The notes below the pieces were generated by a model that worked only from the letters and a program-made list of their open reading frames with translations, was not told where the DNA came from and made no database searches. DNA of 59,409 bases from a virus (Duplodnaviria; Caudoviricetes), in IMG/VR virus record IMGVR_UViG_3300005531_000120, positions 1 to 59,409 of that record. The stretch is one strand, 5' to 3'. Position numbers and translations under genes: made by a program. Below are positions 30,885 through 48,071 of this stretch, one piece after another; positions within the stretch are counted from its first letter, which is position 1, and the number at the start of each line of letters is the position of its first letter.

Positions 30885-30927
30885 CGAGCCATCATCGAGC
30901 GATTGCGGGCGGGAAGGAGCTTGAGCG

Positions 30928-31578: not shown

Positions 31579-31586
31579 GGCGCCAC

Positions 31587-31784: not shown

Positions 31785-31802
31785 GCCGGAGCCGCTCCCT
31801 GC

Positions 31803-31862
31803 CTCTGTGCCGCCTTCCGCGGTCGCGCTGACGCGCGACGCCGGCGGCGGCCTTTGACGATC
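31803..31862 (+). promoter_or_regulatory. Conserved structured leader, copy A (tail tube gene)
   Basis: CTCTGT GCCGCC TTCC GCG G TCGCGC tgac GCGCGA CGC CGGC GGCGGC CTTTGAC. Confidence 0.75.
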
Positions 31863-31882
31863 TAAAAAGGAGATCGCAAATC

Positions 31883-32632
31883 ATGTTCTTCTTCGGCTCC
31901 GGCGTGCTGCTCGTCCAGCGCCAGGACATCGCCAATGCCACGCCGGTCAACATCGGCCTGCTGCAGGACGTCGCCTTCGATCTCAGCTTCGACCTGAAGC
32001 AGCTCTACGGCCAGTATCAGTTCCCCGTGGCGCTCGGCCGCGGCAAGGCGAAGCTCGCAGCCAAGGCCAAGGTGGCGCGGCTCTCGGGCCGCGCGATCGG
32101 CGACATCTTCTTCGGCATTTCGCCGGCCGTGGGCGAGCTCCTGACGTCCTTCGGCGAGGGTCCGACCCCGATTCCCGCGACGCCGTTCCAGATCACCGTC
32201 ACGCACGGCGCCACCTTCGTCGACGACTACGGGGTGGTGAACGCGGCGACCGGCCTGCCGTTCGCGCGCGTCGCGAGCGCCCCCGCCGCGGGCCAGTACA
32301 GCGTCTCGAACGCCGGCGTCTACACCTTCGCTTCCGCCGACAACGTCAGCGGCATCAGCGTCCTCATCAGCTACACCTACACGGTCAGCACCGCCGGCAC
32401 GCAGCAGATCGCGATCGCGAACCAGCTGATGGGCACGACGCCCACCTTCCAGGGCCAGTTCTACGGCACGTTCCAGGGCGTGCCACTCAATTTCAAGGCC
32501 TATCAGTGCGTCTGCTCTAAGCTCAATCTGTCGAGCAAGCTCGACGATTTCATGATCCCGGAGTTCGATTTCGAGATATTCGCGAACGCCGCTGGGGCCG
32601 TCGGCAACATGTCCTTCGGCGAGGCGAGCTAG
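31883..32632 (+). CDS. Major tail tube protein
   Basis: Position, strong SD; FGSGVL...LQDVAFD...KQLYGQYQFPV...DDFMIPEFDF. Confidence 0.85.
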   Translation: MFFFGSGVLLVQRQDIANATPVNIGLLQDVAFDLSFDLKQLYGQYQFPVALGRGKAKLAAKAKVARLSGRAIGDIFFGISPAVGELLTSFGEGPTPIPATPFQITVTHGATFVDDYGVVNAATGLPFARVASAPAAGQYSVSNAGVYTFASADNVSGISVLISYTYTVSTAGTQQIAIANQLMGTTPTFQGQFYGTFQGVPLNFKAYQCVCSKLNLSSKLDDFMIPEFDFEIFANAAGAVGNMSFGEAS

Positions 32633-32648
32633 TTTAGAAAGGGCTCCG

Positions 32649-32957
32649 ATGGACATCACTCTCGCCGGCCAGGTTTTCACGATCCAACCGCTCAACCTCG
32701 GCCAGATCGAGGAGATCGCCGACGCGCTCGGCGGTGGCGCGGGGGCGCCTCTCTCTCCCGGCGCCCCCCCGCGCGCCTTCGACCGCACGCTCGCGATCGT
32801 CTCGGCCGCGCTCAAGGCCTCCGGCAAGCCCGAGCTCACGCCCGACGCGCTCCGGCAGCTCATGATCACGCCGGACGAGATGAAGGCGGCGCAGGACGCG
32901 ATCCTCCGCCATTCGGGCCTGATCCCCGCGGGGGAAGCCAAGGCCCCGGCCGCCTAG
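32649..32957 (+). CDS. Tail assembly chaperone (gpG-like)
   Basis: Between tube and tape measure; ends with slippery G GGG GAA. Confidence 0.8.
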   Translation: MDITLAGQVFTIQPLNLGQIEEIADALGGGAGAPLSPGAPPRAFDRTLAIVSAALKASGKPELTPDALRQLMITPDEMKAAQDAILRHSGLIPAGEAKAPAA

Positions 32958-33343
32958 CGCACGGCGGGCGGGGCGGCCTGGATTTCGGCTACATCATCGG
33001 CCGCATCGGCACGGCGCTGAAGAAGCTGCCGTCGGAGGTCCGGCAGATGACGCTGCCGGATGTCCAGCGCCTGTTCGACTATTGGCGCGAGCACCCTCCG
33101 GAGCATGAGCTCGTCGCCATGATGGCGCGCGTCTATACGACCTGGCGCCCCGAGGCCGCGGGCCCGCAGCCCTGCACCAAGATCAGCCCGTCGATCGGCG
33201 ACTTCCCCCCGGTGGCCGTGAAGCGGCCCTCCGGCGCGGGCGCCGGGGCGCCGGAAGCCCGCAAGCGTGCCCTCATGGACGCGCTCAAGGCCAAAGGCGG
33301 CGCCGTCTCGCTCGAGGATCTCAAGATCCTCGGCAACGCATGA
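32930..33343 (+). CDS. Frameshifted tail chaperone extension (gpT-like), -1 shift at GGGGGAA 32930..32936
   Basis: -1 frame is open from 32933 through LDFGYIIGRI...MTLPDVQRLFDYWREHPP to 33343. Confidence 0.75.
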   Translation, partial: GGSQGPGRLAHGGRGGLDFGYIIGRIGTALKKLPSEVRQMTLPDVQRLFDYWREHPPEHELVAMMARVYTTWRPEAAGPQPCTKISPSIGDFPPVAVKRPSGAGAGAPEARKRALMDALKAKGGAVSLEDLKILGNA

Positions 33344-33352
33344 GGCTCCCGC

Positions 33353-33385
33353 GCTACTCGCGCGGCGAGGGTCGGCGTCGGCTCG
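33353..33385 (+). repeat. TAC-hairpin repeat upstream of tape measure gene
   Basis: GCTAC TCGCGCGGCGA GGGTCGGC GTCGGCTCG. Confidence 0.75.
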
Positions 33386-33395
33386 TGGAGAATAG

Positions 33396-36026
33396 ATGTC
33401 CTCCCTTTCCGTCTCCGTCACCGCCGAGACCCAAGACCTAGAGGCGAAGCTCGCCGTCGCCCAGGCGCAGCTCCGCGCCTTCCAGGCCGAGCTGCGCAAC
33501 ACCGCGAACGCCGCGGTGCAGTCCGGCACCGCGCTCGACGACATGAGCCGCGCGAAGCTCGGCCAGCTCGCGAGCCAGGTCGACCAGGCGCAGGGCCGGG
33601 TCAGCTATTTCAAGGCGAGCCTCTCGGAGCTTGGCCCCGCCGCCAACCAGGCCTCGCTCCACGCGAGCACGCTCACCCGCGAGACCCGCGCCCTCATCGC
33701 CGAGCTTAGCCGCGGCGAATTCTTGCGCGCCGGCGGCACGATCGCGCTGCTCGGCGAGCATCTGGCCGAGCTGGGACCCGCGGCGCTCGCCGGCATCGCC
33801 GGTGTCGCCGCGATGGGCGCCGGCCTCGCGTACATGATCGTCCAGGGCCAGTCCGCGCAGAAGGCGCTCGACGATATCCAGGGCCAGATGATCCTGGTTG
33901 GCCGCGGCGCGAGCTTCTCCGCCGAGGCCGCCCAGGGCGCCATGGACCAGCTGGAGAAGAGCTTCGGGCTCTCCGCCAGCAGCGCCGCCGTGGTCGAGAA
34001 AGAGATCGCGAAGATCCCGATTGCCACGGACGCGACGCGCCAGGCGGTCAGTCTGCTCGCCGTGGCCTATGCACACCTCAACAGCGAGACGCCGGAGAAG
34101 GCGGCCCAGACGGTCGCCAAGGCGTTCGCCGGCGGCGGCGAGGCCGCGCTCCAGTTCGCCCAGCAGCTGCGCGCCCTCACTCCCGCGCAGCAGCTCGCGC
34201 TGCGGGAGGCCCAGCGCCACAGCGATGTGCTGGGCGCCCAGGCCATCCTGACGGATGCGCTGAGCTCGCGCCTCGGCCACTTCGTGGATTACCTGAAGCA
34301 GCTGACCGAGTGGTGGGACAAGGCGCGGATCGCGGCGCTCACCGCCGACACGGCCATGGGCCAGACCGTCGAGGATATCATCGGTCCTAAGCCCACGATG
34401 CCTACCGGCTCCGGCCCGGGCACCGGAGCCGCGGACCAGCAGGCGCTCGATATCACCCTGCGATACCGCGACGTCGTCGACCAGATCCGCGATCGCGAGA
34501 AGGACATCAAGATCCTCAAGGAGGGGATCAAGACCGCCTCCGGCGACGTCCTCGCCACCGAGACTCACGCGCTCCAGGTCGCCGAGAAGCAGCTGCAGGA
34601 TCTCAAGACCCAGGGCCAGGGCTCGGCGCTCGAGCAGGATCGCGCGCAGCTCGTGCAAGAGCTCGCGCTCTCCCAGGGCGGCCATCAGCAGCAGCTTCAG
34701 GAGACCGTCACGTTCTGGCAGAACGTCCTCAACACCCAGAAGCTCTCCGCCAAGGAGCGGCTGCAGGTCGAGACCGAGCTCGCGAACGCGCAGAAGCAGC
34801 TAAATCAAGCGAAGCACGCCGACGATCTCGCAGAGGCCCAGAGCCACCAGCAGGTCGTGATCGCGGGCTATCAGTTCGAGGAAGAGCAGGCGCGGACGGC
34901 GCTCGCCACCGGACAGATCACCCTCGAGCAGGAATACCAGCGGCTCAAGGACGTCGAGAACCGCAAGATCGCGGCCGTCATCGAATACCTGCAGCGCAAG
35001 ATGGAGCTCGAGGGTGCGAGCGCGGCCGCAATCCAGCAGCTCAAGGACCAGGAGACCATCGCCGAGTATGAGCATGACCAGAAGATGCTGCGGATCGACC
35101 AGGACTATTACCAGCAGAAAAAGCAACTGGCTGAGCAGGATCTCCAGTCCGAGAAGGGCATCCTCGGCGAGCTCACCCGGCTCGAGTCCGGCCTGGTCAG
35201 CAGCATCCTGTCGAGCCGGCAGCGCCTCTCGGTCAGTCTGATCCAGCTCGCCGAGCAGACCGTCGCCCGCGAGATCGAGGCGGACCTCAAGGCTCTCACG
35301 ATCTCGCTGTTTTCCGACAACGCGAAGAAGGCCTCCGAGCAGGGCGGCGTACTCTGGCACGCGATCGCCGAGGCGACCAAGACCAAGGAGACGATCGCCG
35401 GCGTCGCGCAGCGGACCGGCGCGGAGAACGCCGGCCAGACAACCTTCCTCGGCCGGATCGTGCAGGGCATCGCACGCTGGCTCGGCTTCGAGACCACCAA
35501 GACCGCGACGACGGAGACCGAATCCGCCGCCCGCACTGCGGCCGAGGCCGCGGCCGCCACCGCCTCCAAGGCGGTCGAGGTCGCGACCGGCTTCGGCGAG
35601 ATCCAGATTGACGCTTCCGTCGGCGCCGCCGCCGCCTTCGCGGACATGGCGCAGCTCGGGCCCGAGGGCCTGGCAGCGGCACCCGGCGTCGCCGCCGCGA
35701 CCTACGCCACGATCCTCGGCTACGCCAGCGGCCTCGGCGCCGCCATGTTCGACCAGGGCGCCTGGGAGCTGCCGTCGGACATGCACGGCGTCACCGTGCA
35801 CCGCGGCGAGACCATCATGCCCGCGAGCTTCGCCCAGGGCTGGCGCGACGCCGTCTCCGGGGGCGGCGGTCTTGGTGGCGGAGGGCCGATCAACATCAAC
35901 GTGAGCGCGGTCGACGCCCGGAGCTTCATGTCGATGCTCCGCGATCCGACCTCGCCGCTCACCCGCGCGCTCGCTCATGCGGCGCGCAATAACGACAGTC
36001 ACCTCCGCGGGATACTGAAACGGTAG
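33396..36026 (+). CDS. Tail tape measure protein
   Basis: 876 aa Ala/Gln-rich helical; C-terminal VHRGETIMPA, INVSAVDARS. Confidence 0.93.
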   Translation: MSSLSVSVTAETQDLEAKLAVAQAQLRAFQAELRNTANAAVQSGTALDDMSRAKLGQLASQVDQAQGRVSYFKASLSELGPAANQASLHASTLTRETRALIAELSRGEFLRAGGTIALLGEHLAELGPAALAGIAGVAAMGAGLAYMIVQGQSAQKALDDIQGQMILVGRGASFSAEAAQGAMDQLEKSFGLSASSAAVVEKEIAKIPIATDATRQAVSLLAVAYAHLNSETPEKAAQTVAKAFAGGGEAALQFAQQLRALTPAQQLALREAQRHSDVLGAQAILTDALSSRLGHFVDYLKQLTEWWDKARIAALTADTAMGQTVEDIIGPKPTMPTGSGPGTGAADQQALDITLRYRDVVDQIRDREKDIKILKEGIKTASGDVLATETHALQVAEKQLQDLKTQGQGSALEQDRAQLVQELALSQGGHQQQLQETVTFWQNVLNTQKLSAKERLQVETELANAQKQLNQAKHADDLAEAQSHQQVVIAGYQFEEEQARTALATGQITLEQEYQRLKDVENRKIAAVIEYLQRKMELEGASAAAIQQLKDQETIAEYEHDQKMLRIDQDYYQQKKQLAEQDLQSEKGILGELTRLESGLVSSILSSRQRLSVSLIQLAEQTVAREIEADLKALTISLFSDNAKKASEQGGVLWHAIAEATKTKETIAGVAQRTGAENAGQTTFLGRIVQGIARWLGFETTKTATTETESAARTAAEAAAATASKAVEVATGFGEIQIDASVGAAAAFADMAQLGPEGLAAAPGVAAATYATILGYASGLGAAMFDQGAWELPSDMHGVTVHRGETIMPASFAQGWRDAVSGGGGLGGGGPININVSAVDARSFMSMLRDPTSPLTRALAHAARNNDSHLRGILKR

Positions 36027-36046
36027 CGACCTTCGGAATTCACCTC

Positions 36047-36664
36047 ATGTCGCTCGCCGTCTTCCCCACGCTCATCGGCCTCGGCTGGAACGTCAAGCAC
36101 GGCAAGCTCTGGAAAACGCGGTCGCAGGAGGCAATCTCCGGCAAGAGCGCGCGGATCAGCGACTGGGTCTTCCCGAGGCACCAGTGGGAGCTCAGCTTCG
36201 AGTTCCTGGGCCAGGGGACGATCAGCGGCCAGGTCTATAGCGACCTCGCGAACCTCATGGGGTTCTTCGACCTGCGCCAGGGCATGTTCGACAGCTGGCT
36301 CTACCAGGACGCCGAGTTCAATTCGGTCACCGATCAGTCGCTGGGCGCGGGCGACGGCACGACCACGGTCTTCCAGCTGCTGGCCACGACGAGCGCGGGT
36401 TTCATCGAGCCGGTGCTGGCGCCGAACGTCGTCACCGCCGTCAAGATCAATGGCGTCACCCAGGCGGCGAACACCTACTCCGTCAACGCCAGCACCGGCC
36501 AGATCACCTTCAACAGCGCGCCCGGCAACGGCCTCCTCGTCACCTGGAGCGGCACCTATTACTGGCTCTGCCAGTTCGCCGAGGATCACATGGACTTCGA
36601 GAAGTTCATGCAGGGCTTTTGGCAAGCGAAGAGCGTGAAGTTCCTGTCGCTGAAGAGCGCGTAG
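36047..36664 (+). CDS. Distal tail protein, DUF2460-like
   Basis: FPTLIGLGW...SGK...LMGFF..RQG...GDGTTTVFQL. Confidence 0.85.
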   Translation: MSLAVFPTLIGLGWNVKHGKLWKTRSQEAISGKSARISDWVFPRHQWELSFEFLGQGTISGQVYSDLANLMGFFDLRQGMFDSWLYQDAEFNSVTDQSLGAGDGTTTVFQLLATTSAGFIEPVLAPNVVTAVKINGVTQAANTYSVNASTGQITFNSAPGNGLLVTWSGTYYWLCQFAEDHMDFEKFMQGFWQAKSVKFLSLKSA

Positions 36665-36674
36665 ATATTGCCGC

Positions 36675-36717
36675 GCTACTCGCGCGACCGGGGTTGGGCA
36701 GGCGGTCGGTCGCGCGA
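36675..36717 (+). repeat. TAC-hairpin repeat
   Basis: GCTAC + stem TCGCGCGACCG/CGGTCGCGCGA, loop begins GGGTTGG. Confidence 0.85.
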
Positions 36718-36724
36718 GGATCAA

Positions 36725-36952
36725 ATGAGACTCTGGCTCCTGCAATTCCCGCCGGAGTCCGATGTCCCCTTCGCATCGATCCGCGTCGCCGCGCGCACGA
36801 AGCTCGAGGCCTGCACGATCGTCGCGGGGCAGCTCGAGCTGCCGATCGACGCCGAGAGCCCGCACCCTCTGGGCCGCGGCACGGTGGCTATCAACCACGT
36901 CGGGCAGAGTGCCGCGCTGGAGCCGGGGATCCTGGGAGCCGCGGCGAGGTGA
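36725..36952 (+). CDS. Small hypothetical gene between two repeat copies
   Basis: GAGGA SD; interrupts the normally adjacent DUF2460-DUF2163 pair. Confidence 0.55.
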   Translation: MRLWLLQFPPESDVPFASIRVAARTKLEACTIVAGQLELPIDAESPHPLGRGTVAINHVGQSAALEPGILGAAAR

Positions 36953-36956
36953 TCCT

Positions 36957-37014
36957 CGCGTGGCGAGCCGCCACGCCAACCCGCGCCGCCGGGTTGGCCG
37001 GCGGCGGAGGCGCG
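36957..37014. repeat. Collapsed pair of TAC-hairpin repeats
   Basis: GCGAGCCGCCACGCCAACCC GCGCCGCC GGGTTGGCCGGCGGCGGAGGCGCG; an internally deleted version of 26985..27087. Confidence 0.8.
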
Positions 37015-37026
37015 GGGACAACAATC

Positions 37027-37929
37027 ATGAAGCCGGCCAGCGTTTTGTTTCAGACGATCCTCGGCCAATCCGAGTGGCTGGCGCCCGACCTCTACACCTT
37101 CACGCTCGCCGACGGCACGGTGCTCCGCTACACCAATCTCGACGTCGACGTCCTATGCCTCGGCAACACCTTCTCGAGCGGCGGGCTCACCGGGCCGTTC
37201 TTCGATCGCCAGGACAACAAGGCGAAGTGCCACTGGAAGATCGGCGTCGACGTCGACACGCTCATCTTCGACGTCATCCCGGGATCCTCGACGATCGAGG
37301 GCAAGCCGTTCCTCCAGGCCGCGCGGCTCGGGATCTTCGACGGCGCGGAGCTGCAGCTCGAGCGCGCGGCGATCGCGCCGCCCACCGGCGCCTTCCAGCC
37401 GCCGCTTCCGGCGCCCGCCGGCACGGTGATCCTGTTCGTCGGCCGCGTGGGCGAGATCGATTTCGGCCGCTCGCTCGCGACCTTCAACGTCAACAGCCAT
37501 CTCGAGCTGCTGAACCTCAACCTGCCGCGGAACCTGTACCAGAGCGCCTGCGTGAACTCGCTCTACGACGCCGCATGCGGCGTCAATCGCGCGGCGTACC
37601 AGGTGAACGGCGCCGCCGCCGCGGGCTCGAGCACCTCCGCCGTGACCGCCACGCTGGCGAGCCCGACCGGCTGGTTCGACCAGGGCTCGCTCATCTTCAC
37701 GAGCGGCCAGAACCAGGGCTTCGCGCGCACGGTCAAGAGCTACGTCGCGGGATCTCCGGGCACGCTCTCGCTGATCGAGCCGCTCCCCTTCGCGCCGGCG
37801 CCGGGCGACACGTTCCAGGCGTTTCCCGGCTGCGATAAGACGAACGGCGCGGGCGGCTGCGCGAAGTTCAACAACACGGCGCGCTTCAAGGGATTCCCGT
37901 TCGTGCCCATCCCCGAAACGGCGGCCTAG
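37027..37929 (+). CDS. Baseplate hub protein, DUF2163/BR0599-like
   Basis: DLYTFTLADGTVLRYT, GIFDGA, C...LYD..CGV, PGCDKT...C.KFNN...FKGFPFVP. Confidence 0.9.
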   Translation: MKPASVLFQTILGQSEWLAPDLYTFTLADGTVLRYTNLDVDVLCLGNTFSSGGLTGPFFDRQDNKAKCHWKIGVDVDTLIFDVIPGSSTIEGKPFLQAARLGIFDGAELQLERAAIAPPTGAFQPPLPAPAGTVILFVGRVGEIDFGRSLATFNVNSHLELLNLNLPRNLYQSACVNSLYDAACGVNRAAYQVNGAAAAGSSTSAVTATLASPTGWFDQGSLIFTSGQNQGFARTVKSYVAGSPGTLSLIEPLPFAPAPGDTFQAFPGCDKTNGAGGCAKFNNTARFKGFPFVPIPETAA

Positions 37930-37945
37930 CGGTTCGGAGGCTGCG

Positions 37946-38419
37946 ATGCCGACCGAGCTCGAGCAGCGCGCCGCCGTGGTCGCCGAGGCTCGCTCCTGGC
38001 TTGGCACGCCCTATCACCACATGGGGCGCATCAAGGGCGTGGGCGCGGACTGCCTCACCGCACCGCTCTGCTGCTATCAGGCGGTCGGGCTGGTGCCGCG
38101 CAGCTTCGCGGTGCCCTTCTATCCGCTCGATTGGAACCTCCATCGGACCGAGGAGCGCTACCTCGAGGGCGTCTTGCAATTCGCCCGCGAGATCCCGGGG
38201 CCGCCGCAGCCGGGCGATCTCGCCCTGTGGAAATTCGGCCGCTGCTTCGCGCACGGCGCCGTCGTCGTCGATTGGCCGAGGGTCATTCACGCCCAGATCG
38301 GCCACGGGGTCCGCCTCGAGGACGTCGAACGCGCGGTCTGGCTGAATTTTGTCGGCGAGCCCGGCCCTGATCGCGGGAAGCCGCGACCGCGGAGGTTTTT
38401 CAGCCCATGGGCGGCCTGA
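37946..38419 (+). CDS. Tail-associated NlpC/P60 peptidase
   Basis: EARSWLGTPYHH...GVGADC...PGDL...HGAVV...IHA. Confidence 0.92.
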   Translation: MPTELEQRAAVVAEARSWLGTPYHHMGRIKGVGADCLTAPLCCYQAVGLVPRSFAVPFYPLDWNLHRTEERYLEGVLQFAREIPGPPQPGDLALWKFGRCFAHGAVVVDWPRVIHAQIGHGVRLEDVERAVWLNFVGEPGPDRGKPRPRRFFSPWAA

Positions 38420-40767
38420 CCGGCAAAGGCGGAGCATCTCAAGCCGCCACCAACACCCGCGCCGCCGGCCTGCAGATCCAGACCAGCGTGCTCGGCGCCG
38501 CGGTCGCGTTGATCTACGGCGCGACCCGCGTTGCGGGGAACGTGATTTGGGCCGGCGACTTCAAGGCGATCGCGCATCAGAGCTCCGCCGGCGGCGGCGG
38601 CAAGGGCGGCGTGGTCGGCGGCGGCGGCAAGGGCGGCGGCGGAGGCGTGACCTACACCTACCAGACCGGGCTCGCCATTGCGCTCGGCGAGGGGCCGATC
38701 GCCGGCGTCAACACCGTCTATGTCAACAAGAACGTCGACACGCCCGCGCAGCTCGGCTTCACCGTCTTCGACGGGACCTACCCCCAGGCGCCCTGGGGCG
38801 TGCTCGCGACCAATCACCCCGATCAGGCGCTGCCCTATACCGGCATCGCCTACGTCGCGGCGGACCCCTACAACCTCGGCAGCACGCCGACGCTTCCGAA
38901 CCACAATTACGAGGTCTACGGGCGCCTCTATGCGACGGCCGCCAACGGCGTCGACGCGGAGCCCTCGCAGGTCATCACGGACCTGCTGACGAACCCGGAT
39001 TACGGCGCGGGCTTCCCCCCGGCGCGCCTCGGCGACCTGTCGCTCTATCGGACCTATTGCCAGGCAGTCGGGCTCTGGGTCTCGCCGGCCTATGCCTCGC
39101 AGACGTCGGCATCGCAGATGCTCGACGAGCTCGCCAAGAACACGAACAGCGCCTTCGTCTGGTCCTCGGGCGTGCTGACGCTGGTGCCGTTCGGCGACAC
39201 GGCGGTCACCGGCAACGGCGCCACCTATCAGCCCGCGGCGGCGCCGCAGTACGACCTGACCGACGACGACTTCTTGCCGAACGCCAACGCCGCAGGCTCC
39301 AGCGGCACCAACAGCGACCCCGTCCTGGTGACGCGCAAGCGGCCCGCCGACGCGCTCAACAACATCAAGATCGAATTCCTCAACCGGTCGAACCAGTACA
39401 ATCCGGAAGTGGTGGAGGCGATCGACCAGGCCGCGGTCGACCGCTACGGCCGGCGCACCGACGGCTCGCGCAGCAGCCACATGTTCGCGGATCCCGCCGC
39501 CGCGAAGCTCAGCGTCCAGCTGCAGCTGCAGCGCGAGACGATCAAGAACGTCTACCAGTTCACCCTGGGGCAGCGGTTCATCCGCCTCGATCCCATGGAC
39601 ATCGTGACGCTCACCGACAACGCGCTGGGCTTGAACAAGCAGTGGGTCCGCATCACCGAGATCACCGAGCAGGACGACGGCACGCTGCTCGTTACGGCCG
39701 AGGAGTACCAGCAGGGCACCGGCCACGCCGCGCTCTATAATTTCGGCACCAGCCAGGGCTACAAGGCGAACGCGGACGCGGCGCCGCCCTCGACCAACGC
39801 CCCCGTGATGTTCGCGGCGCCGGTGCAGCTCGCGCAATCGGCCTCGGGCCTCGAGCTCTGGGTGGCGCTCTCCGGCCCCGCGGCCACCGGCGCCCAGGCG
39901 CAATGGGGCGGCTGCGACGTCTGGGTGAGCTCGGACGGCGGCAACTCCTATCCGAAGCAGCTGCCGCGCGTGCTCGGCGGCTCGCGCCAGGGTGTCATCT
40001 CGCAGGCCCTGCCGAGCGGCTCGGATCCCGATCTCGCCCACGCGCTCATGGTGGACCTCACCATGACCAACGGCGGGGCGCAGCTCCTCTCGGGCACGCA
40101 GGCCGACGCGGACGCGTTCCACACGCTCTGCTACGTCGACGGCGAGCTGATCTCCTACGAGACGGCGACGCTGATCGCGACCGGAAAGTATGCGCTGACC
40201 TATCTGCGCCGCGGCGCCTACGGCACGGCGGTGAAGCCGCACCTCGCGGGGAAGCAATTCGCGCGGCTCGACGAGTCGATCCTGATCATCCCCTACACGG
40301 CCGACCAGATCGGCAAGACGCTCAACATCAAGTTTCCGGCCTTCAACATCTTCGGCGGCGGCCTTCAGAGCCTTTCGCAGGTGCCGGCCTATTCGATCGT
40401 GCTGCCGGCGCCGCCGGTGCCGCCCGACGTCACCAACTTCGCGGTCGCCAACTCCGGCGAGGTGGTGGCGCTCACCTGGACCCAGGTCGCCGATAACGCG
40501 ATCCTCGGCTACGACATCCGCTACGGCGCCTTCGGCGTCACCGACTGGAACCAGATGATGCCTCTGACCGAGGCGAAGAAGGGCACCGAGATGACCAACG
40601 CCGCGGTGCCCCCGGGCCTCTGGACCTTCGCGATCCGCGCGCTCTCGATCGACGGCAAGACCTGGTCGACGCACATGGCGACCCAGACGCTCCAGGTGGT
40701 GACGACGAATCCGGTGCTGGCGACCCAGCCGCAGGCGCCGGTGTGGGGGAATTTGGGCGTGGTGTAA
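38407..40767 (+). CDS. Tail tip / host-specificity protein (GTA megatron-like), possibly lacking its C-terminal part
   Basis: LIYGATRVAGNVIW, LGEGPI, YTGIAY, LDPMDIVTLTD, YLRRGAYGT, terminal FN3-like domain. Confidence 0.9.
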   Translation: MGGLTGKGGASQAATNTRAAGLQIQTSVLGAAVALIYGATRVAGNVIWAGDFKAIAHQSSAGGGGKGGVVGGGGKGGGGGVTYTYQTGLAIALGEGPIAGVNTVYVNKNVDTPAQLGFTVFDGTYPQAPWGVLATNHPDQALPYTGIAYVAADPYNLGSTPTLPNHNYEVYGRLYATAANGVDAEPSQVITDLLTNPDYGAGFPPARLGDLSLYRTYCQAVGLWVSPAYASQTSASQMLDELAKNTNSAFVWSSGVLTLVPFGDTAVTGNGATYQPAAAPQYDLTDDDFLPNANAAGSSGTNSDPVLVTRKRPADALNNIKIEFLNRSNQYNPEVVEAIDQAAVDRYGRRTDGSRSSHMFADPAAAKLSVQLQLQRETIKNVYQFTLGQRFIRLDPMDIVTLTDNALGLNKQWVRITEITEQDDGTLLVTAEEYQQGTGHAALYNFGTSQGYKANADAAPPSTNAPVMFAAPVQLAQSASGLELWVALSGPAATGAQAQWGGCDVWVSSDGGNSYPKQLPRVLGGSRQGVISQALPSGSDPDLAHALMVDLTMTNGGAQLLSGTQADADAFHTLCYVDGELISYETATLIATGKYALTYLRRGAYGTAVKPHLAGKQFARLDESILIIPYTADQIGKTLNIKFPAFNIFGGGLQSLSQVPAYSIVLPAPPVPPDVTNFAVANSGEVVALTWTQVADNAILGYDIRYGAFGVTDWNQMMPLTEAKKGTEMTNAAVPPGLWTFAIRALSIDGKTWSTHMATQTLQVVTTNPVLATQPQAPVWGNLGVV

Positions 40768-41490
40768 TCAGCGCCGTCTCTGCACGGTGGAACCCGCAGC
40801 GTCGTTTGGCGAGAGCGCGAGAGGTGGGATAGCAACGAAGGCCTTCAGCTTCGGATAGTGCGCATTCATGGCGACATCGAGCCCATAATTGTCGAGCTCC
40901 TTTTCGAGCATCTGAAAATGCACCCTTACGGGCCGGAGCGGCAGGCACAGCGCCATGAGGGCCGCCGCGCCCTTCGGTGAAATCGAGTAGCAGACCAGGC
41001 CGAGCATCTGTTCGAGCCGGTCTAGTCGAACGCGCGCGCGGGCGCTTTGAAAATCCGTGAACGCCGTTTCAAGCCGCACAACGTCGAACCCGATCGAGCC
41101 CCCGATGGGGCCGTGCGCGATGTGCGCGCCGACGTTGCACCCCCAGAACGCGATGTCCCAGTCCTCGGGAAGTCGTTCGATGCCAGCGGCGGCCTTGCCC
41201 TCGAAGTCGCGCCGCAGGATTGCATCATCCTCGGCGATCGTGGCAGCGCTCCGCCCGGCAATGGCCTCCTGCCAGAGCGTGACATGTGAGAGGGCGCACC
41301 CCAATGCGCCCCGCGTGTAGAACGGCAACGCCGCCGGGGTGATCAGTCCTGCGCGAACGAACTGTTCATTGACGATCTGCGCGCCGTCGGCGGCAGCAAC
41401 TCGGCGGATCTCCGTTAGGTGACGATTAGCGGCAAGAAACGCCGCGAGGCGGTCAGCGCTCCTGTCGAGATTGATCACGTGAATCCGCAT
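40768..41490 (-). CDS. Glycosyltransferase family 25 (LPS biosynthesis type), counter-oriented moron
   Basis: VINLDRSADRL, AADG, GALGCALSH..LW, IAEDDA, YSISPKGA. Confidence 0.92.
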   Translation of the reverse strand: MRIHVINLDRSADRLAAFLAANRHLTEIRRVAAADGAQIVNEQFVRAGLITPAALPFYTRGALGCALSHVTLWQEAIAGRSAATIAEDDAILRRDFEGKAAAGIERLPEDWDIAFWGCNVGAHIAHGPIGGSIGFDVVRLETAFTDFQSARARVRLDRLEQMLGLVCYSISPKGAAALMALCLPLRPVRVHFQMLEKELDNYGLDVAMNAHYPKLKAFVAIPPLALSPNDAAGSTVQRRR

Positions 41491-41543
41491 TTTGGGAAGC
41501 AGAGGCCGCCGCCGGCGCCTCTGTCAAGCGCGAGGTCCTGTCC

Positions 41544-42440
41544 ATGATGGAGGTCGAGCTCGCGGCTTCCGCGGGGATCTCGCTGTCGCTGAACGCGCCG
41601 ATCGAGGGCACCCTGACATGCAGACTGGGTGACTGGATCGAGCCGGTCCTGGCGCTATCGCCGGAGGCCCCGCCGGCGGCCGAGCTCGAGCTCCCGGTTC
41701 CGGTTACCGGACCGGCCATCGAGGGCGACGAGCTCACGCTCCATCTGCCGTGGCTGGACCGATACCCCTTCACGGTCCCGCTGACGCGCTATGCGGGCAT
41801 CGGCACGCCGGTCAATCTCGGCAACGTCCACGGCAGCCTGATCGTCACCACCGCGGCGGCTAACGCCGGCGACGCGATCATCGTGGCGCTCTCCTCGAAG
41901 AATGCGACCGCGCTCACCGTAACCGACAGCGGCGGAAATTCTTACGTCCAGGACGTTCAGGTCGCCAACGGCAGTTCCATCCAGTGCGCGATATTCCGCA
42001 GCAACAATGCCAACGGGCTCGCGAGCGGCGGCACGATCACCCTCGGCGGAGGCGTCTCCGGCGGCGGCGCGGCCATCGTCGTCTCGGGCCTGGATGCCTC
42101 GCCGGTCGATGGCACCGGGACCGAGACTGACTCCGCCACTACCGGGACCGTTTCCCTCACGACCGGCGCGGCGAACGACATCCTGATCGGCGCCGTCGCC
42201 AGCAACGGGCCGAATACCGTCAGCAGCGAGAGCCCCGGCTTCACCTCGCTCACGGGCAATGCGACCTCGGCCTCGATCGAGTGGGCTTACAACAACGGAG
42301 TCGGCGCCGGTGCGCAGACCTATGCGCCGACCATGAGTGGCTCCAACGGTCACGCCCGCGTCTGCGTCGCCTATAAGGCGGCCCAGACTTTCGTCCCTTA
42401 CACGCCCTGGCCTCAGCTCGGCCCCATCCTCGCGCAGTGA
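41544..42440 (+). CDS. Putative virion appendage protein, Gly/Ser/Thr-rich beta domain
   Basis: AGDAIIVA...VTDSGGNSY; acidic 80-aa leader; Pro/Trp C-terminal tail. Confidence 0.65.
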   Translation: MMEVELAASAGISLSLNAPIEGTLTCRLGDWIEPVLALSPEAPPAAELELPVPVTGPAIEGDELTLHLPWLDRYPFTVPLTRYAGIGTPVNLGNVHGSLIVTTAAANAGDAIIVALSSKNATALTVTDSGGNSYVQDVQVANGSSIQCAIFRSNNANGLASGGTITLGGGVSGGGAAIVVSGLDASPVDGTGTETDSATTGTVSLTTGAANDILIGAVASNGPNTVSSESPGFTSLTGNATSASIEWAYNNGVGAGAQTYAPTMSGSNGHARVCVAYKAAQTFVPYTPWPQLGPILAQ

Positions 42441-42449
42441 GGCTCGCGC

Positions 42450-42764
42450 ATGATCCGAGATTCCGTGCTGCTCACGGGCCGCGCCAACGGCGAGACGTAT
42501 GTCCGGGAGAACCGCACCGAGCGCTATGTCTGCATCCCGCCGGCCTACATCATCACCGACGAGACCGGCGCGACCTGGACGTTCGGCCACAGCTACGTGC
42601 GGCACGGCGACGGTTTTCTTTTCTCCGTGATGCGCAACGACGTCGATACCGGCGAGCTCGCGGAGAAGATCGAATTCAGGGCCACGCGCATGAATCCGCG
42701 CGGCTCGGTCACGATCTATGGGCCGGGCGGCTGCAAGGTCTGGAACGGCCGGGCGTTCATCTGA
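42450..42764 (+). CDS. Hypothetical protein
   Basis: GAGG SD; globular composition. Confidence 0.65.
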   Translation: MIRDSVLLTGRANGETYVRENRTERYVCIPPAYIITDETGATWTFGHSYVRHGDGFLFSVMRNDVDTGELAEKIEFRATRMNPRGSVTIYGPGGCKVWNGRAFI

Positions 42765-42775
42765 GCTTCACCCGT

Positions 42776-42834
42776 CTCCGCGCGGGGCTTCCGCGACGAT
42801 CGCTCATGCGATCGCGTCTGGCGCCCGCCTTTGA
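42776..42834 (+). promoter_or_regulatory. Conserved structured leader, copy C
   Basis: CTCCGC GCGGGGC TTCC GCG A CGATCGC tcat GCGATCG CGT CTGGC GCCCGC CTTTGA. Confidence 0.7.
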
Positions 42835-42846
42835 AAGGAATTGCAA

Positions 42847-43338
42847 ATGACGCGCGAATTTTCGATCTCCGCCGCCGGCGTCACCGTCGCCGGCGCCACC
42901 ACGCTCATCTTCGTGAACCCGGCGGCGGCGCCGAACTTCAATCTGGAGTTCCTCCGCTTCTGGATCGGGCAGAGCGCCAACGCCACGTCTGCGCAGCAGC
43001 GCGCGCAGCTCGAGACCCAGGTCTCGGCCTTCCCGACCTTGACCGCGGCGACACCGGCAAAGCTCAAGCCTGCGGACCCGAACGCCTCCATCATCACCGG
43101 CGGCACCGCCGGCGCCGCCGGCACCGCCGGCACCAACGCCTCGGCCGAGGGCGCCGGCGCCAAGACCGCCGTCTACGACGACGTCTTCAACGTGCTCAAC
43201 GGCTGGCTCCATGTGCCGACACCCCCGGAGACGCGCATCATGCCGGCGGGCTTCGCCTCCGGGCTAGGTCTGTTCTTCCCGGTCGCGCCCGCGACCCTCA
43301 CCAACTGGGCCTTCGGCCTGATCTTCAGGGAAGTCTAG
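42847..43338 (+). CDS. Putative virion structural protein
   Basis: AAGGA SD; Ala/Thr/Gly-rich beta composition, location in fibre region. Confidence 0.7.
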   Translation: MTREFSISAAGVTVAGATTLIFVNPAAAPNFNLEFLRFWIGQSANATSAQQRAQLETQVSAFPTLTAATPAKLKPADPNASIITGGTAGAAGTAGTNASAEGAGAKTAVYDDVFNVLNGWLHVPTPPETRIMPAGFASGLGLFFPVAPATLTNWAFGLIFREV

Positions 43339-43389
43339 CCGTCGCGTAGCGACGGTCTCGCGCCGCGGCAGCACCACGTTTCAACCTGT

Positions 43390-43449
43390 CTCTGTGCCTG
43401 GCTTCGGCGACGATGCTTCGCATCGCGCCGGCGCCGGCCTTTGACAATC
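43390..43449 (+). promoter_or_regulatory. Conserved structured leader, copy B
   Basis: CTCTGT GCCTGGC TTCG GCG A CGATGC ttc GCATCG CGC CGGC GCCGGC CTTTGAC. Confidence 0.75.
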
Positions 43450-43467
43450 CAAGAGGATTGCAAACAC

Positions 43468-43680
43468 ATGCCCACCATCGCCCACAAGACCGTCACTCGC
43501 GACGCCGACAAGAAGGTGTTCACTTCCGGGCACGGCCAGGTTCACCACGGGAAGACCTGCACGGTCGTGCGCGCGGTCACCGAGGAGGACAAGGAGTGGG
43601 ACCGGGAAATCGGCAAAACCTGGGTCCGCCTCGAGGACGGAACCGAGGTCGCGGTGCTGAACGACGAGGTCGTTCACTGA
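43468..43680 (+). CDS. Small beta-rich (SH3-like) hypothetical protein
   Basis: GAGGA SD; HGKTCTVVR...VRLEDGTE...DEV. Confidence 0.65.
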   Translation: MPTIAHKTVTRDADKKVFTSGHGQVHHGKTCTVVRAVTEEDKEWDREIGKTWVRLEDGTEVAVLNDEVVH

Positions 43681-43722
43681 TCCTTCCGACACGCCGCTGC
43701 GCGGCGCGCTCAGGATGAGGGG
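43680..43722. repeat. Alphaproteobacterial REP-like palindromic element
   Basis: ATCCTTCCGACACGCCGCTGCGCGGCGCGCTCAGGATGAGG resembles the common ATCCTTCGAGAC...CTCAGGATGAG element. Confidence 0.6.
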
Positions 43723-43729
43723 AGCGCTG

Positions 43730-43771
43730 GCTGAAAGCTGACGGCTGACGGCTGAGGGCTGACAGCTGATG
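43730..43771. repeat. Six tandem GCTGANN heptamers running into the next start codon
   Basis: GCTGAAA GCTGACG GCTGACG GCTGAGG GCTGACA GCTGATG. Confidence 0.9.
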
Positions 43772-45184
43772 GCCATCTTTTACCCGCCGCCGCCGCCGTT
43801 CGTCGGAGGCCAGCAGCCCCACGCGCCGAAGCCGCTGCCGGCCTCGATCGAGGCGGTGCCGGTCGACGAGCCGCCCCACCAGCACCCTGCGCGATCGCCG
43901 GCGCTCTCGGCGATCGTGCGGGCGTGGGACCCGCCGCCGCCGAACGCCTTCCTCGGCGGGCGGCAGCCGCTCCAGCCGCTGCTCCCGAGCGAGCTGTTCC
44001 CGCCTGGCCCCAGCAATCCTCCGTTCAGCCACCCCGCGCGCACGGCGGCGCTGCAGTCGCTCCTCCGAGCCTGGGACCCGCCCCCGCCCGACCCGCGCTT
44101 CGACGGCCGCCAGGCGCTGAGCCCACGCCGGCTCGCGCCGGCGATCATCGCCGTCCCCGTCAGCGACCCGCCCTTCCGCCATCCCGCGCGCACGGCGGCG
44201 CTGCAGGCGATCATGCGGGCCTGGGACCCGCCGCCGCCGAACGCCTTCCTCGGCGGGCGGCAGCCGCTCAATCCGCCCTGGCTCAATCCGTCGATTACGA
44301 ATTACGTCCCAGACAATCCGCCCTTCGGGCACTTCGCGCGCACGCCCACCTTCGCGCAGATCCTGCGCATGTGGGATCCGCCGCCGCCCGAGGCGTACCA
44401 GGGGCGGCAGCGCGGCGATCGCCGGGATCTCGCGGCGATCCTCGAGTCGCTGCCGATCCCGGTCAACGCGTCGGGCTGGGTCTACCACTACTCGGGCGTG
44501 CTGGTGCCCGACAGCTACCTGGTCGCCGCGAACGACGGCGGCTTCGCGGTCTTCGACAATTACGTCTGGTCGCCCGTCGCCCAGGGCATCTACGAGGCGC
44601 CGGGGATCTCGCTGGCGAAGACGTCGCTGATCCGCGCCTGGGCGACGCTGGTGCAGGTGCTGGGCCCGGGCGCCGCCGGCAAGATCGCGCCGCAGCTGCA
44701 GCTCCGCTATTCCACCAGCGCGACCTCCGACCCCGCCATGTGGGGCTCGAGCTCGTCGCTCATGTGGAACGTCGATCCCTCGACGCTCATGTGGGCGGGC
44801 CTCTCGGATTGGGTGGGCCTGCCGGCGAAGGCGACGCTCCGGACCGATTACGTCCAGATCCGCGTCGTCAACGACTTCACCCAGGGCCTGCCGATCTTCC
44901 AGGCCTTCACGCCCGTGATCGACCAGCCGGTGATCTCGGACTCGAGCCTCTACTCGCCGAACGGGCCGAACGTCGCGGTGGCGCGCGGCGGGACGCGGGT
45001 CAATTTCAACACGGCGGATTTCCTGAACCCGCCGCACGTGGACGCGGTCTTCGTCTCCGCGACCGGCGACACCAGCGGCACCGCGACCGCGACGGCGATC
45101 GACAACACCGGCTTCACGCTGCACGTCTTCGACACGATCGGAAACGACGTCGGCGGCGTCGCCGGCTGGCGCGCGTCGACGTAG
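43769..45184 (+). CDS. Pro-rich repeat protein fused to a tail-tip-like C-terminal region
   Basis: Four ~50-aa repeats ending R(A/M)WDPPPP; C-terminal beta region ending FTLHVFDTIGNDVGGVAGWRA. Confidence 0.8.
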   Translation: MAIFYPPPPPFVGGQQPHAPKPLPASIEAVPVDEPPHQHPARSPALSAIVRAWDPPPPNAFLGGRQPLQPLLPSELFPPGPSNPPFSHPARTAALQSLLRAWDPPPPDPRFDGRQALSPRRLAPAIIAVPVSDPPFRHPARTAALQAIMRAWDPPPPNAFLGGRQPLNPPWLNPSITNYVPDNPPFGHFARTPTFAQILRMWDPPPPEAYQGRQRGDRRDLAAILESLPIPVNASGWVYHYSGVLVPDSYLVAANDGGFAVFDNYVWSPVAQGIYEAPGISLAKTSLIRAWATLVQVLGPGAAGKIAPQLQLRYSTSATSDPAMWGSSSSLMWNVDPSTLMWAGLSDWVGLPAKATLRTDYVQIRVVNDFTQGLPIFQAFTPVIDQPVISDSSLYSPNGPNVAVARGGTRVNFNTADFLNPPHVDAVFVSATGDTSGTATATAIDNTGFTLHVFDTIGNDVGGVAGWRAST

Positions 45185-45221
45185 TCGATCGCTGGCGCCC
45201 GCGCAGAGCAGAAAGAGACGC

Positions 45222-46769
45222 ATGACCTTCCGGCGCCCCATCAGCATCGCCTGCGCCGGGCTGATCGCCGGCCTCTGCGGCTACGCGGGCTCGGCGATCC
45301 ATGACGGCGATATCCCGCGCCTCGTCGCGCAGGCCCAGGCGCAGGTGGCGTGCCCGTCCGTGCTGCCGCCTGCGGCGAACTTCACCGGCGGCGGCGTGAC
45401 GCAAGGCGGCTTCAAGACCGCGATCACCAGCCTGATCAACAACCTTACCTGTCTCTTCGGCACGGACGGCACCGCGGCGACCGCGAAGAGCACGCTCGGC
45501 CTCGCCACCGTCGCGAGCTCGGGGCTCTATTCGGACCTCTCGGGATCCCCGACCGCGCTCCCGCCCAACGGCGCCGCCGGCGGCGATCTAACGGGCAGCT
45601 ATCCCAACCCGACCGTCGCCAACATTCGCGGCGTTCCCGTCTCCAGCACGCCGCCCACGAACGGCCAGCAGCTGCAGTTCAACGGCAGCCAGTACGTCCC
45701 GGTCACGCCCTCGAGCAACCCCGTCGGGCCCGAGGCCCCGCTCGCGGCGGCGGCAACGACGGATCTCGGCTCGACCGGGGTGCTGGCGGTCAAGATCACC
45801 GGCAGCGGCGTCAACATCACGAGCCTGGGCTCGAGCGCCTCGACCGCCTACCCGATATACTGGGTGCGCTTCGCCGGCGCGAACACCGTCAAATACAACG
45901 CCACGACCCTGCAGACGCCCGGCGGCGTCGACATTCCGGCAGCGGCCGGCGACGAGATGGTGGCGCTCTACCTGGGCGCCGGCAATTGGCGCGTGATCAT
46001 GTACAAGCCGGCGCTGGCGGCTTACGTGGGCGGCGCCACCGGGACCTGGGGCGCCACCAACGGCACCCAGGCGATCGGCCAGCTCGTGGTCGGCGCCGAC
46101 GGCCGCGTGACCGGCCTCACGGTCATCAATCTGCCGACCTCCGGCTCCCCCTCCGGCGGCGGCAGCTGCGGCAGCTCGTGCGGCGCGAGTTGCTTCCTGC
46201 TCTCGGCGCTGGTCACCATGGCGGATGGCGCGACGAAGCCGCTCGGCCTCGTCCGGATCGGCGATCGCGTGGCCGACGGCCGCGGCGGCGTCAACACCGT
46301 CGTTGCGCTCGATCGCACCGAGCTCGGCGAGCGGCTGATGTACCGCCTCAACACCGAGCACTACTTCTCGGGCGAGCATCCGCACATGTTGGCCGCCGGC
46401 GGTTTCGTCGCCGCGGAGCCGATGGCGATCTATGCGGAGTGGGGCGACGCGCATCCGCTCATCGTGAAGGGCGGCGGGATCGAGCGCCGGCTCAACGTCG
46501 GGCTGCCCATCGGCATGGTCCAGCAGATGCGCGCCGGCCAGGTGCTCCGGAAGCACGGCCGTCCGGTGCCGCTGATCACGCTCGAGATCTGCGATCCCAC
46601 GCAGTTCCCGCCCGAGACGCCGCTCGCCAACCTAGCCGTCGACGGCAGCGGCACCTGGGAGTGCGACGGTTACGCCGTGACCGGCTGGCCCGATCACACG
46701 AAATTCGACCACGCGGCGTGGAGGCCGAAGACGGCCACGTCCGAGGCGGGCATCGGCGCCGCGGCGTAG
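45222..46769 (+). CDS. Tail fibre-like protein with C-terminal Hint domain
   Basis: AGGDLTGSYPNPTV and AAATTDLG...GAGNWR fibre motifs; CFLLSALVTMADG...IGDRV...FSGEHP...NLAVDG Hint blocks. Confidence 0.82.
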   Translation: MTFRRPISIACAGLIAGLCGYAGSAIHDGDIPRLVAQAQAQVACPSVLPPAANFTGGGVTQGGFKTAITSLINNLTCLFGTDGTAATAKSTLGLATVASSGLYSDLSGSPTALPPNGAAGGDLTGSYPNPTVANIRGVPVSSTPPTNGQQLQFNGSQYVPVTPSSNPVGPEAPLAAAATTDLGSTGVLAVKITGSGVNITSLGSSASTAYPIYWVRFAGANTVKYNATTLQTPGGVDIPAAAGDEMVALYLGAGNWRVIMYKPALAAYVGGATGTWGATNGTQAIGQLVVGADGRVTGLTVINLPTSGSPSGGGSCGSSCGASCFLLSALVTMADGATKPLGLVRIGDRVADGRGGVNTVVALDRTELGERLMYRLNTEHYFSGEHPHMLAAGGFVAAEPMAIYAEWGDAHPLIVKGGGIERRLNVGLPIGMVQQMRAGQVLRKHGRPVPLITLEICDPTQFPPETPLANLAVDGSGTWECDGYAVTGWPDHTKFDHAAWRPKTATSEAGIGAAA

Positions 46770-46837
46770 CCGCGATCGCGAGAGCCCGCGCCCATGAAGG
46801 ACAGAACCCGCTGCACCCGTCCGCTCAGGCTAGTCGG

Positions 46838-46885
46838 CTCTGTGCGGGCTTCCGCGATCGCGCTGCGCGCGACGCCGGCGCCCGC
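46838..46885 (+). promoter_or_regulatory. Conserved structured leader, copy D
   Basis: CTCTGT GCGGGC TTCC GCG A TCGCGC tgc GCGCGA CGC CGGC GCCCGC. Confidence 0.75.
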
Positions 46886-46917
46886 GCTCAGCGGCATCTG
46901 AGCGCAGGAGCGCTCTG

Positions 46918-48015: not shown

Positions 48016-48021
48016 TTTTTC

Positions 48022-48054: not shown

Positions 48055-48071
48055 GCTCCGGAGGTCTCGAC

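Follow-up and report, generated by a model that had tools for sequence, protein, structure and literature searches.

Tailed phages produce very unequal amounts of their virion proteins from one long late transcript, and the means by which they do so are known for few model phages. REP/BIME elements of bacteria are imperfect intergenic palindromes of about 35-45 nucleotides (nt), sometimes arranged as inverted doublets, that stabilise the upstream mRNA, and REPs number tens to hundreds per host chromosome. In phage T7, according to the available part of one report, five RNase III signals lie in one polycistronic precursor, and single-strand cuts leave stabilising 3' hairpins (PMC3867540). The accessible portion of the work on SAS/ESAS in Cluster K mycobacteriophages describes a 13-mer, GGGATAGGAGCCC, at the start codon, with 17-bp imperfect inverted repeats upstream (PMC3203893). 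For the PeSLs of T4-type phages, the portion of the report at hand proposes spread and shuffling by recombination, and describes a strong sigma-70-like early promoter and action as terminators (PMC2839356). Here we analyse a hairpin cassette that recurs between late genes of the virus record IMGVR_UViG_3300005531_000120 from IMG/VR (59,409 bases, linear, ~90% complete, 68.6% G+C; this whole stretch is called the window below). It may serve to process and stabilise the late messenger while setting up translation of the next gene.

Four hairpin copies at late-gene junctions

A structured leader had been proposed at four places of the late region, and sequence read-out found all four copies at these positions on the + strand. 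They are named s1 to s4, and their main hairpin, HP1, is built of the stems P1, P2 and P3.

31801-31858, + strand: copy s1, with CTCTGT 31803-08, HP1 31809-51, CTTTGA 31852-57 and ATG 31883
31809-51, + strand: HP1 of s1, with P1 GCCGCC/GGCGGC, internal loop TTCC/CGGC, P2 GCG/CGC, bulged G, P3 TCGCGC/GCGCGA and loop TGAC
42774-42835, + strand: copy s2, with the variant flank GTCTCCGC 42774-81, HP1 42782-42828, CTTTGA 42829-34 and ATG 42847
42782-42828, + strand: HP1 of s2, with P1 GCG(G)GGC/GCCCGC containing one bulged G, and P3 CGATCGC/GCGATCG
43388-43445, + strand: copy s3, with CTCTGT 43390-95, HP1 43396-43438, CTTTGA 43439-44 and ATG 43468
43396-43438, + strand: HP1 of s3, with P1 GCC(T)GGC/GCCGGC, loop TTCG/CGGC and P3 CGATGC/GCATCG
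46836-46892, + strand: copy s4, with CTCTGT 46838-43, HP1 46844-85, no CTTTGA, and ATG 46918
46844-85, + strand: HP1 of s4, with P1 GCGGGC/GCCCGC and P3 TCGCGC/GCGCGA

The common order is GBCTCYGYGC, P1, TTCS, GCG, R, the P3 hairpin, CG(C/T), C(T)GGC and P1', followed in three of the four copies by CTTTGA; the lack of this motif in s4, noted in the original prediction, was confirmed. HP1 is a hairpin of about 45 nt flanked by linkers that are invariant across the copies, and together with a second hairpin (HP2, below) the whole unit measures about 85 nt. The spacers that hold the four full copies are 82-148 nt long, intergenic and in sense with the late genes, and the end of HP1 lies 18-32 nt from the ATG; s1 occupies a 98-nt spacer after a 65-amino-acid (aa) open reading frame (ORF) that ends at 31784. 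Repeats, compensatory pairing, sense orientation and an intergenic site beside a ribosome-binding site can all be observed directly on the DNA.

Counted over the whole window, CTCTGT occurs four times on the + strand and CTTTGA six times, with three occurrences of each at the elements. The fourth CTCTGT (41519) lies in the 3' arm of an unrelated 7-bp hairpin, CAGAGGC...GCCTCTG, at 41500-41524, 20 nt before ATG 41544. This hairpin comes just after an opposite-strand glycosyltransferase family 25 gene (40768-41490) and receives no score from the covariance model used here.

That model, R1, was built from s1, s3 and s4 with s2 left out. Its members scored 81.3 (s1), 79.9 (s3) and 74.6 bits (s4), and the left-out s2 was recovered at 41.1 bits (E ~1e-7); the E-values of R1 are apparently about tenfold too low, because 122 matches had E<=10. 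In the model-guided alignment of the four copies, all 60 of 60 cells held standard pairs and 6 of 15 pairs changed on both sides (2/6 in P1, 4/9 in P2+P3), in agreement with the earlier description of P1 and P3 as stems that vary and keep pairing between fixed linkers. The observed score was attained in 1 of 500 shuffles, and slid controls paired at 24-58%. Predicted folds were stable and surpassed those of most shuffled versions in s1 (-32.4 kcal/mol, z -2.56), s2 (-29.9 kcal/mol, z -2.65), s3 (-35.3 kcal/mol, z -5.32) and s4 (-38.6 kcal/mol, z -1.93). With six P1 pairs, a 4x4 internal loop, three P2 pairs and six to seven P3 pairs, the helix amounts to about 19-20 stacked positions.

The leader had also been called unannotated, and the Rfam search proposed with it agreed: no family matched the element at gathering or relaxed E-values. 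Specifically, with Rfam 15 at the gathering score the sole match in the whole window was the tRNA at 59297-59368, and in E-value mode (up to E 1-10) over s1-s4 no own-strand match overlapped the element, all matches falling far below the gathering score.

A second small hairpin, HP2, arises from pairing between CUUUGA and GCAAA; it encloses the Shine-Dalgarno (SD) sequence and was absent from the original prediction. The run AGGA...GCAAA before the ATG, which had been reported for three copies, was found in s1, s2 and s3. The second hairpins of s1, s3 and s4 are as follows.

31853-31880, + strand: HP2 of s1, UUUG/CAAA, inner stem CGAUCU/AGAUCG, SD AAGGAG in the loop and 3' arm; -8.7 kcal/mol, z -2.2
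43440-43464, + strand: HP2 of s3, UUUG/CAAA, inner stem CAAUCC/GGAUUG, SD AGAGGA in the loop and 3' arm; -9.4 kcal/mol, z -3.46
46893-46922, + strand: s4's own second hairpin, 12 pairs, AGGA 46906-09 as apical loop, start codon 46918-20 in the 3' arm; -24.7 kcal/mol, z -3.5

Between s1 and s3, the inner stems of HP2 differ by two compensatory pairs.

Related sequences, relatives and genomic setting

Two weak copies of HP1 in the opposite orientation, both missed by the original prediction, were detected with R1. They are listed here with the looser version of the leader that had been reported before the capsid gene.

46739-46792, - strand: probable degenerate inverted HP1 copy, R1 32.7 bits (- strand) vs 12.8 (+ strand)
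45158-45210, - strand: possible second inverted copy, more degenerate, R1 26.8 bits with one non-standard P1 pair, borderline given the loose E-values
25586-25651, + strand: looser version before the major capsid gene, with outer stem GCCAC/GTGGC, ATTTGAC, GGAG, GCA and ATG 25666

By its sequence, the first is probably an inverted, degenerate copy of HP1: it is about 85% like s4 over ~45 nt (compared by eye) and has no CTCTGT flank. The end of gene 45222-46769, with its final codons and TAG stop (46767-69), falls within this copy, which can also pair with the 5' half of s4, as a long-range alternative in the fold of 46770-46917. The second is a possible inverted copy and overlaps the TAG stop (45182-84) of gene 43769-45184. 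Paralogy of the upstream genes as the source of the two inverted copies was rejected, the two upstream proteins being unrelated. The looser version exists and shares the layout of the element, but its membership of the sequence family could not be demonstrated: it was not among the 122 matches of R1, and its TTTGAC...GCAA pairing is unstable (z +0.83).

The genome holds a second repeat family, CG(C/T)TAC-(N)-CGCGCG-N4-GGGTTGGCG-N-GGCGG, with at least seven + and at least three - copies and three inverted doublets.

~7627, 10304, 21639, 27041, 33346, 36670 and 36969, + strand: copies of the second repeat family
~21615-21650, 27009-27040 and 36974-36999, - strand: copies of the second repeat family

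This family spans early and late regions, and its doublets are found behind the large terminase and capsid genes and in or beside ORF 36762-37838. When s1 and this second family were used as queries against plasmids, the matches were at chance level only (E>=0.02). The inverted copies, taken with this second family of inverted doublets, keep a selfish or DNA-level origin of the element conceivable.

Among relatives, R1 reached at best 18.5 bits, away from the junction, in 49 loci encoding relatives of the 249-aa protein downstream of s1 (identity up to 62%); it gave 0 matches in 19 loci of tail-fibre relatives and at best 21.2 bits in 5 whole related virus records. Inspection by eye covered 13 of the 27 junctions in relatives of the 163-aa protein downstream of s2, where the upstream gene closes with the same ...WNG..F(I/V)* motif. 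Other loci carry unrelated hairpins at those junctions. The absence of the element at the relatives' orthologous junctions points to a recent, lineage-specific addition and not to a conserved requirement. No target-site duplication was seen at the junctions by eye.

Public collections were searched with two strict patterns, whose exactness would miss diverged copies. They returned 0 matches in IMG/VR, 11 single structureless matches of at most 24.6 bits in 185,579 species genomes, and 13 matches in JGI metagenomes, which form two groups of near-alike sequence that look protein-coding by eye. A loose pattern in IMG/VR yielded 117 single chance matches and was discarded.

The sole recurrence found was near-identical DNA of this phage in another study, which covered a mine metagenome: four of its runs contain 85-94% of sampled words, and the contig comparison shows presence and variants. 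The sequencing runs listed for this stretch included no RNA run. Copy s3 with its HP2, the only copy for which identity is claimed, was letter-identical in contigs of runs X2, X3 and X5, with 0 differences over whole contigs. A variant of s2 lacks 15 nt from 42767 and one G at 42784; by coordinates, this deletes the 5' flank and shortens the bulged run by one G but spares the helix, and the undeleted form occurs alongside in three of the four runs. The mine strain also has a 29-nt insertion behind 36978, at a site of the second repeat family.

Gene starts were called from ORF lists and third-position G+C, and 53 ORFs were scanned with PHROGs, 19 of these also with Pfam; many ORFs gave no match. 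The scans place the late virion genes on the + strand from ~19.3 to 48 kb.

169-1335, - strand: integrase
59297-59368, - strand: tRNA, near the other end of the record
within ~19.3-48 kb, + strand: small and large terminase, portal and protease-like gene (family scans)
25666-26979, + strand: major head protein (family scans)
31883-32632, + strand: 249-aa phrog_8234 protein downstream of s1, major tail protein by position only
3' of the 249-aa gene, + strand: two small ORFs, then an 876-aa ORF, the tape measure by position
late region, + strand: DUF2460, an NlpC/P60-like gene and a 786-aa tail protein with Phage-tail_3 and Rcc01698_C domains
late region, + strand: proteins of 298, 104, 163, 70, 471 and 515 aa, without family match
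46918-48015, + strand: tail fibre (phrog_4492), downstream of s4

Since an integrase and a tRNA are present, the record, which comes from soil, is a temperate phage or prophage. The closest named phages for the 249-aa protein have Brevundimonas, Acinetobacter and Pseudomonas hosts, at an identity below 40%. Copy s2 precedes the gene of the 163-aa protein and s3 that of the 70-aa protein, both without family match. The statement that the copies stand upstream of tail and fibre genes thus holds in part: s4 precedes a recognisable tail fibre (phrog_4492), the gene after s1 is a tail gene by position only, and those after s2 and s3 have no family. A role in setting the amounts of abundant virion proteins likewise fits s1 alone, again by gene position, and not s4, which precedes a tail fibre, or s2 and s3, which precede small proteins without family match.

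Several further features of the gene map were observed. The 65-aa ORF (31587-31784) has high third-position G+C and lies between 30928-31578 and s1, and the listed long ORF 30903-31784 is probably not the real gene. A second tyrosine recombinase (17652-18500, 282 aa, phrog_1) stands immediately 5' of the HNH endonuclease and terminase genes. Major-head-like genes at 23036-24097 and 25666-26979 are paralogous (a 71-73% DNA repeat, D4), as are phrog_8234-like genes at 29497-30414 and 31883-32632 (repeat D5). The gene of the 471-aa protein contains three to four internal repeats of ~150 nt at 43834-44295, each a proline-rich unit ending in ...RAWDPPPP.

Candidate functions and origins of the element

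Invariant linkers, covarying stems and the sense, intergenic position fused to a ribosome-binding site argue for a cis-acting RNA, and on sequence grounds neither a promoter nor a symmetric DNA site for a protein suits the pattern as well as such an RNA does. We tentatively favour, at somewhat less than an even chance, a hairpin between cistrons that serves processing and stability of the late mRNA, coupled to a module for starting translation. The element would be a cassette of ~85 nt in the late (virion) messenger, specific to one lineage of temperate siphoviruses and acting in cis as RNA. HP1 would form a very stable helix of ~20 stacked positions, made of P1, the fixed internal loop UUCC/CGGC, P2, the bulged purine and P3, with CUCUGU as its single-stranded, U-containing 5' flank. 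A host endoribonuclease might cut the long late transcript at HP1 or next to it, the candidates being an RNase E-type enzyme acting in the U-containing flank, which is the sole U-containing single-stranded stretch free of pairing, or RNase III acting in the two-turn helix with its internal loop. HP1 would then cap the end of the resulting segment and shield it from decay, and it may insulate the ribosome-binding site that follows from the coding sequence that precedes it. HP2, whose 5' arm is rich in U, could provide a uniform translation start, and s4 would use its own stronger version with AGGA as the loop. Transcription as a single late RNA, cleavage, protection and the effect on protein amounts are what we infer from this arrangement.

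HP1 has the geometry of a T7-type RNase III signal (a two-turn helix of ~20-22 positions, an internal loop and an intercistronic site), a likeness in geometry alone. A scan of 30000-49000 found 0 promoter-like sites and three terminator-like sites (rule: at least 5 T in 8), none of them at the element. The clean compensatory changes, with natural 'empty sites' in relatives, would make this an easy system for reporter and end-mapping tests, and if gene junctions can acquire such a compact, modular RNA cassette, it would offer phages an uncomplicated means of adjusting individual cistrons.

Several points weigh against this reading. The covariation rests on four paralogous copies of one genome. 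HP2 of s2, which extends to ATG 42847, is weak (-1.5 kcal/mol). Other genes of this GC-rich genome commonly have their SD in a small loop too, so that the SD-in-loop arrangement was rejected as a special trait of HP2. Opposite-orientation weak copies over stop codons are not explained by a leader function, and a plausibly abundant protein is encoded only downstream of s1. In 27 loci of relatives of the 163-aa protein (46-86% identity), R1 gave one match of 19.3 bits, located elsewhere, and at the 13 inspected junctions the spacers shrink to as little as 15 nt (before the 163-aa homologue) and 12 nt (before the 70-aa homologue). The absence of the element in relatives implies that expression of the downstream genes does not need it. 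Cleavage, RNA ends and operon structure are themselves inferences. Of the cis-regulatory RNA first envisaged, what stands is an unannotated, structured, intergenic, co-oriented element joined to a ribosome-binding site.

The same absence, in orthologous junctions and in whole related records, implies a recent gain at several sites, as would be expected of a selfish or recombination-spread hairpin repeat (REP/miniature-element or phage-linker-like) copied as DNA into junctions, with any RNA effect incidental. Such an origin, which we think somewhat unlikely, is also suggested by the weaker opposite-orientation copies, one of which forms an inverted doublet with s4, by the second repeat family with its inverted doublets, and by the concentration of copies in the variable tail-fibre region. 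It is opposed by the covariation of the stems around invariant linkers: linkers that are more conserved than stems are the opposite of neutral decay in a recently copied repeat. All four full copies are in sense and fused to a ribosome-binding module, and by eye no target-site duplication accompanies them. The strict patterns found no real copy in IMG/VR, species genomes or metagenomes, which argues against an abundant host repeat, although the host may be unsampled. Among the 53 PHROGs-scanned ORFs (19 also with Pfam) there was no transposase-like family, including the tyrosine HUH-type.

In three of the four copies the GC-rich stem is followed by C-UUU, and HP1 with the short U tract of CUUUGA might act as a leaky intrinsic terminator or attenuator that lowers read-through between late-gene blocks. 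Hairpins of other phages lend this some colour: among the 21 of 49 related loci that were read, in several the major-tail homologue is preceded by an unrelated hairpin with CTT(T) behind it, and L145 among these has a full T run; at the corresponding leader position of other phages the hairpin carries T6-7 (L264, L268, L288, L312). None of the four copies, however, has at least 5 T in 8; the tails read C-TTTGA in three, and s4 has no U at all after the stem. A helix of 20 positions, a fixed internal loop and a fixed 5' flank exceed what a terminator needs, and the U's are explained by the pairing with GCAAA. We consider such a terminator doubtful.

An internal loop, P2, bulged purine and single-stranded flanks that stay invariant next to variable stems are the usual signature of a recognised RNA motif. 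The element might accordingly be a site for a phage or host protein, either a translational operator or a Nus-type (boxA-like) processive antitermination site reloaded along the operon; its flanks are pyrimidine-rich like boxA. In the available part of one source, the nut-site layout is a linear box adjoining a hairpin (PMC2724277). The gammaproteobacterial boxA consensus, as given in the accessible portion of another, is GYTCTTTAANA (PMC5725501); the 3' flank of s1-s3 matches this version at 7-8 of 11 positions, with mismatches at 2, 3 and 8, and the consensus of the host may differ. Four sites immediately before start codons are unlike the known placement of nut sites, and no candidate binding protein was identified. 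Because the consensus is matched at only 7-8 of 11 positions, we regard such a protein site as quite unlikely.

Late promoters with TTGAC of CTTTGAC as the -35 box are scarcely credible: TTGAC is present in s1 and s3, and + strand TTTGAC occurs four times, three of them before virion genes, but s4 has no such motif, 30000-49000 holds 0 promoter-like sites, in s1 and s3 a correctly spaced -10 box would coincide with the start codon or lie beyond it, and the spacing in s2 is far too short.

Three other classes were rejected. No GG/GC pair stands at the spacing required of a sigma-54 promoter, and the outer flanks are not complementary as in an integron attC site (both judged by eye against the usual definitions). 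A CRISPR-repeat mimic, as described in the accessible part of PMC10651486, was ruled out, as the stems differ between copies. The sole CRISPR-DR match (43333-43369) lies outside the element and scored 14.9 bits vs a gathering score of 42.

A 17-mer leader and comparison with known systems

A different leader precedes the major capsid gene of the same genome.

25532-25548: invariant 17-mer GCCCTTGGGCAAGGCAA, 117 nt before the major capsid ATG

An exact 16-mer of this motif was found in 87 IMG/VR stretches (L244-L330) of 41-68% G+C, representing 57-58 distinct contexts, and nearly always lies 0-80 nt 5' of a virion gene. For 47 of 57 contexts, the first 200 nt downstream contain the start of an ORF with 80 codons or more. 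A PHROGs scan of 32 of these 47 ORFs assigned the downstream proteins as follows.

major head protein: 11
major tail protein: 6
phrog_5931 (function not known): 6
without family match: 4
tail sheath, minor tail, other uncharacterised family, protease and HNH endonuclease: 1 each

In most of 30 aligned contexts, (TT)GCCC stands 5-9 nt 5' of the 17-mer and can pair with GGGC(AA); a hairpin often follows on the 3' side, and in four loci this is a full terminator. In one subfamily the motif lies between two hairpins, and a second covariance model, R2, scored 24 of the 87 loci at 65-116 bits and four more at 26.5. These 28 matches reduce to 13 distinct rows. In their model-fitted alignment, both partners vary in 8 of 10 pairs, 95% of cells are paired, and the observed score was attained in 0 of 500 shuffles. 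This 17-mer-leader subfamily is a covarying structured RNA absent from Rfam, which gave no match to 12 such leader loci. Neither the 17-mer sequence nor anything relevant to a capsid-leader RNA motif was found in the literature searched, a megablast search of one such leader against named phages gave no match, and RNAalifold, applied to the 17-mer leaders as aligned by MAFFT, gave an uninformative result.

At the junction that s2 occupies here, before the homologue of the 163-aa protein, three relatives carry the 17-mer and a following hairpin (L182 exactly, L183 with one change, L188 with two; ~2940-2975 in each), so that two kinds of leader occupy the same place. Since the 17-mer precedes this capsid gene, the relatives' s2 junction and the major head, major tail and sheath genes of others, the hairpin cassette and the GCCCTTGGGCAAGGCAA leader might belong, as mutually exchangeable members, to a 'virion-gene leader' class of RNAs that has gone unrecognised, a speculative idea that we consider improbable. 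If it were true, the leaders would act in cis by being read by conserved machinery of the host (ribosome, RNase or elongation complex) and would raise the output of chosen structural genes, and this phage would have swapped the common leader for its own version at several junctions. The 17-mer leader, found across phages of 41-68% GC and with a covarying extended form, may be the broader gain of the analysis.

The cassette shares with the T7 RNase III signals, as far as the available part of that report describes them, several related intercistronic hairpins of about two turns with an internal loop on a long transcript (PMC3867540). It differs in that no sequence relation exists, cleavage is predicted, the genome is GC-rich, the hairpin is fused to a ribosome-binding module and weak inverted copies are present. 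The resemblance to SAS/ESAS, within the accessible portion of the source, lies in a conserved asymmetric start-associated sequence at a subset of genes, preceded in about half of the cases by an inverted repeat at a variable spacer, in nearly all copies having one orientation, and in the function of SAS not being known (PMC3203893). The same portion gives SAS/ESAS 11-19 copies in the non-structural genome half, conserved across a whole phage cluster (PMC3203893), whereas the element has four copies (and two weak ones) in the virion half of one lineage only. The SAS 13-mer GGGATAGGAGCCC, as given there, is not matched by the sequences of s1-s4, so the likeness is one of architecture only. PeSL cassettes, from the part of the report at hand, likewise combine a repeated intergenic stem-loop with the SD and start of the next gene in variable regions (PMC2839356); unlike them, the element has no promoter-like site, and the order of its flanking genes is kept in relatives without the cassette. 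With REP/BIME palindromes the element shares its size range, the imperfect palindrome between cistrons and the occurrence of inverted doublets. Unlike REPs, it had no further copies in any collection searched. Judged by sequence, the element belongs to none of the T7 signals, SAS/ESAS, PeSLs or REPs. It comes nearest to the T7 RNase III signals in proposed function and to SAS/ESAS in architecture, and it resembles the PeSLs as a cassette of stem-loop and ribosome-binding site.

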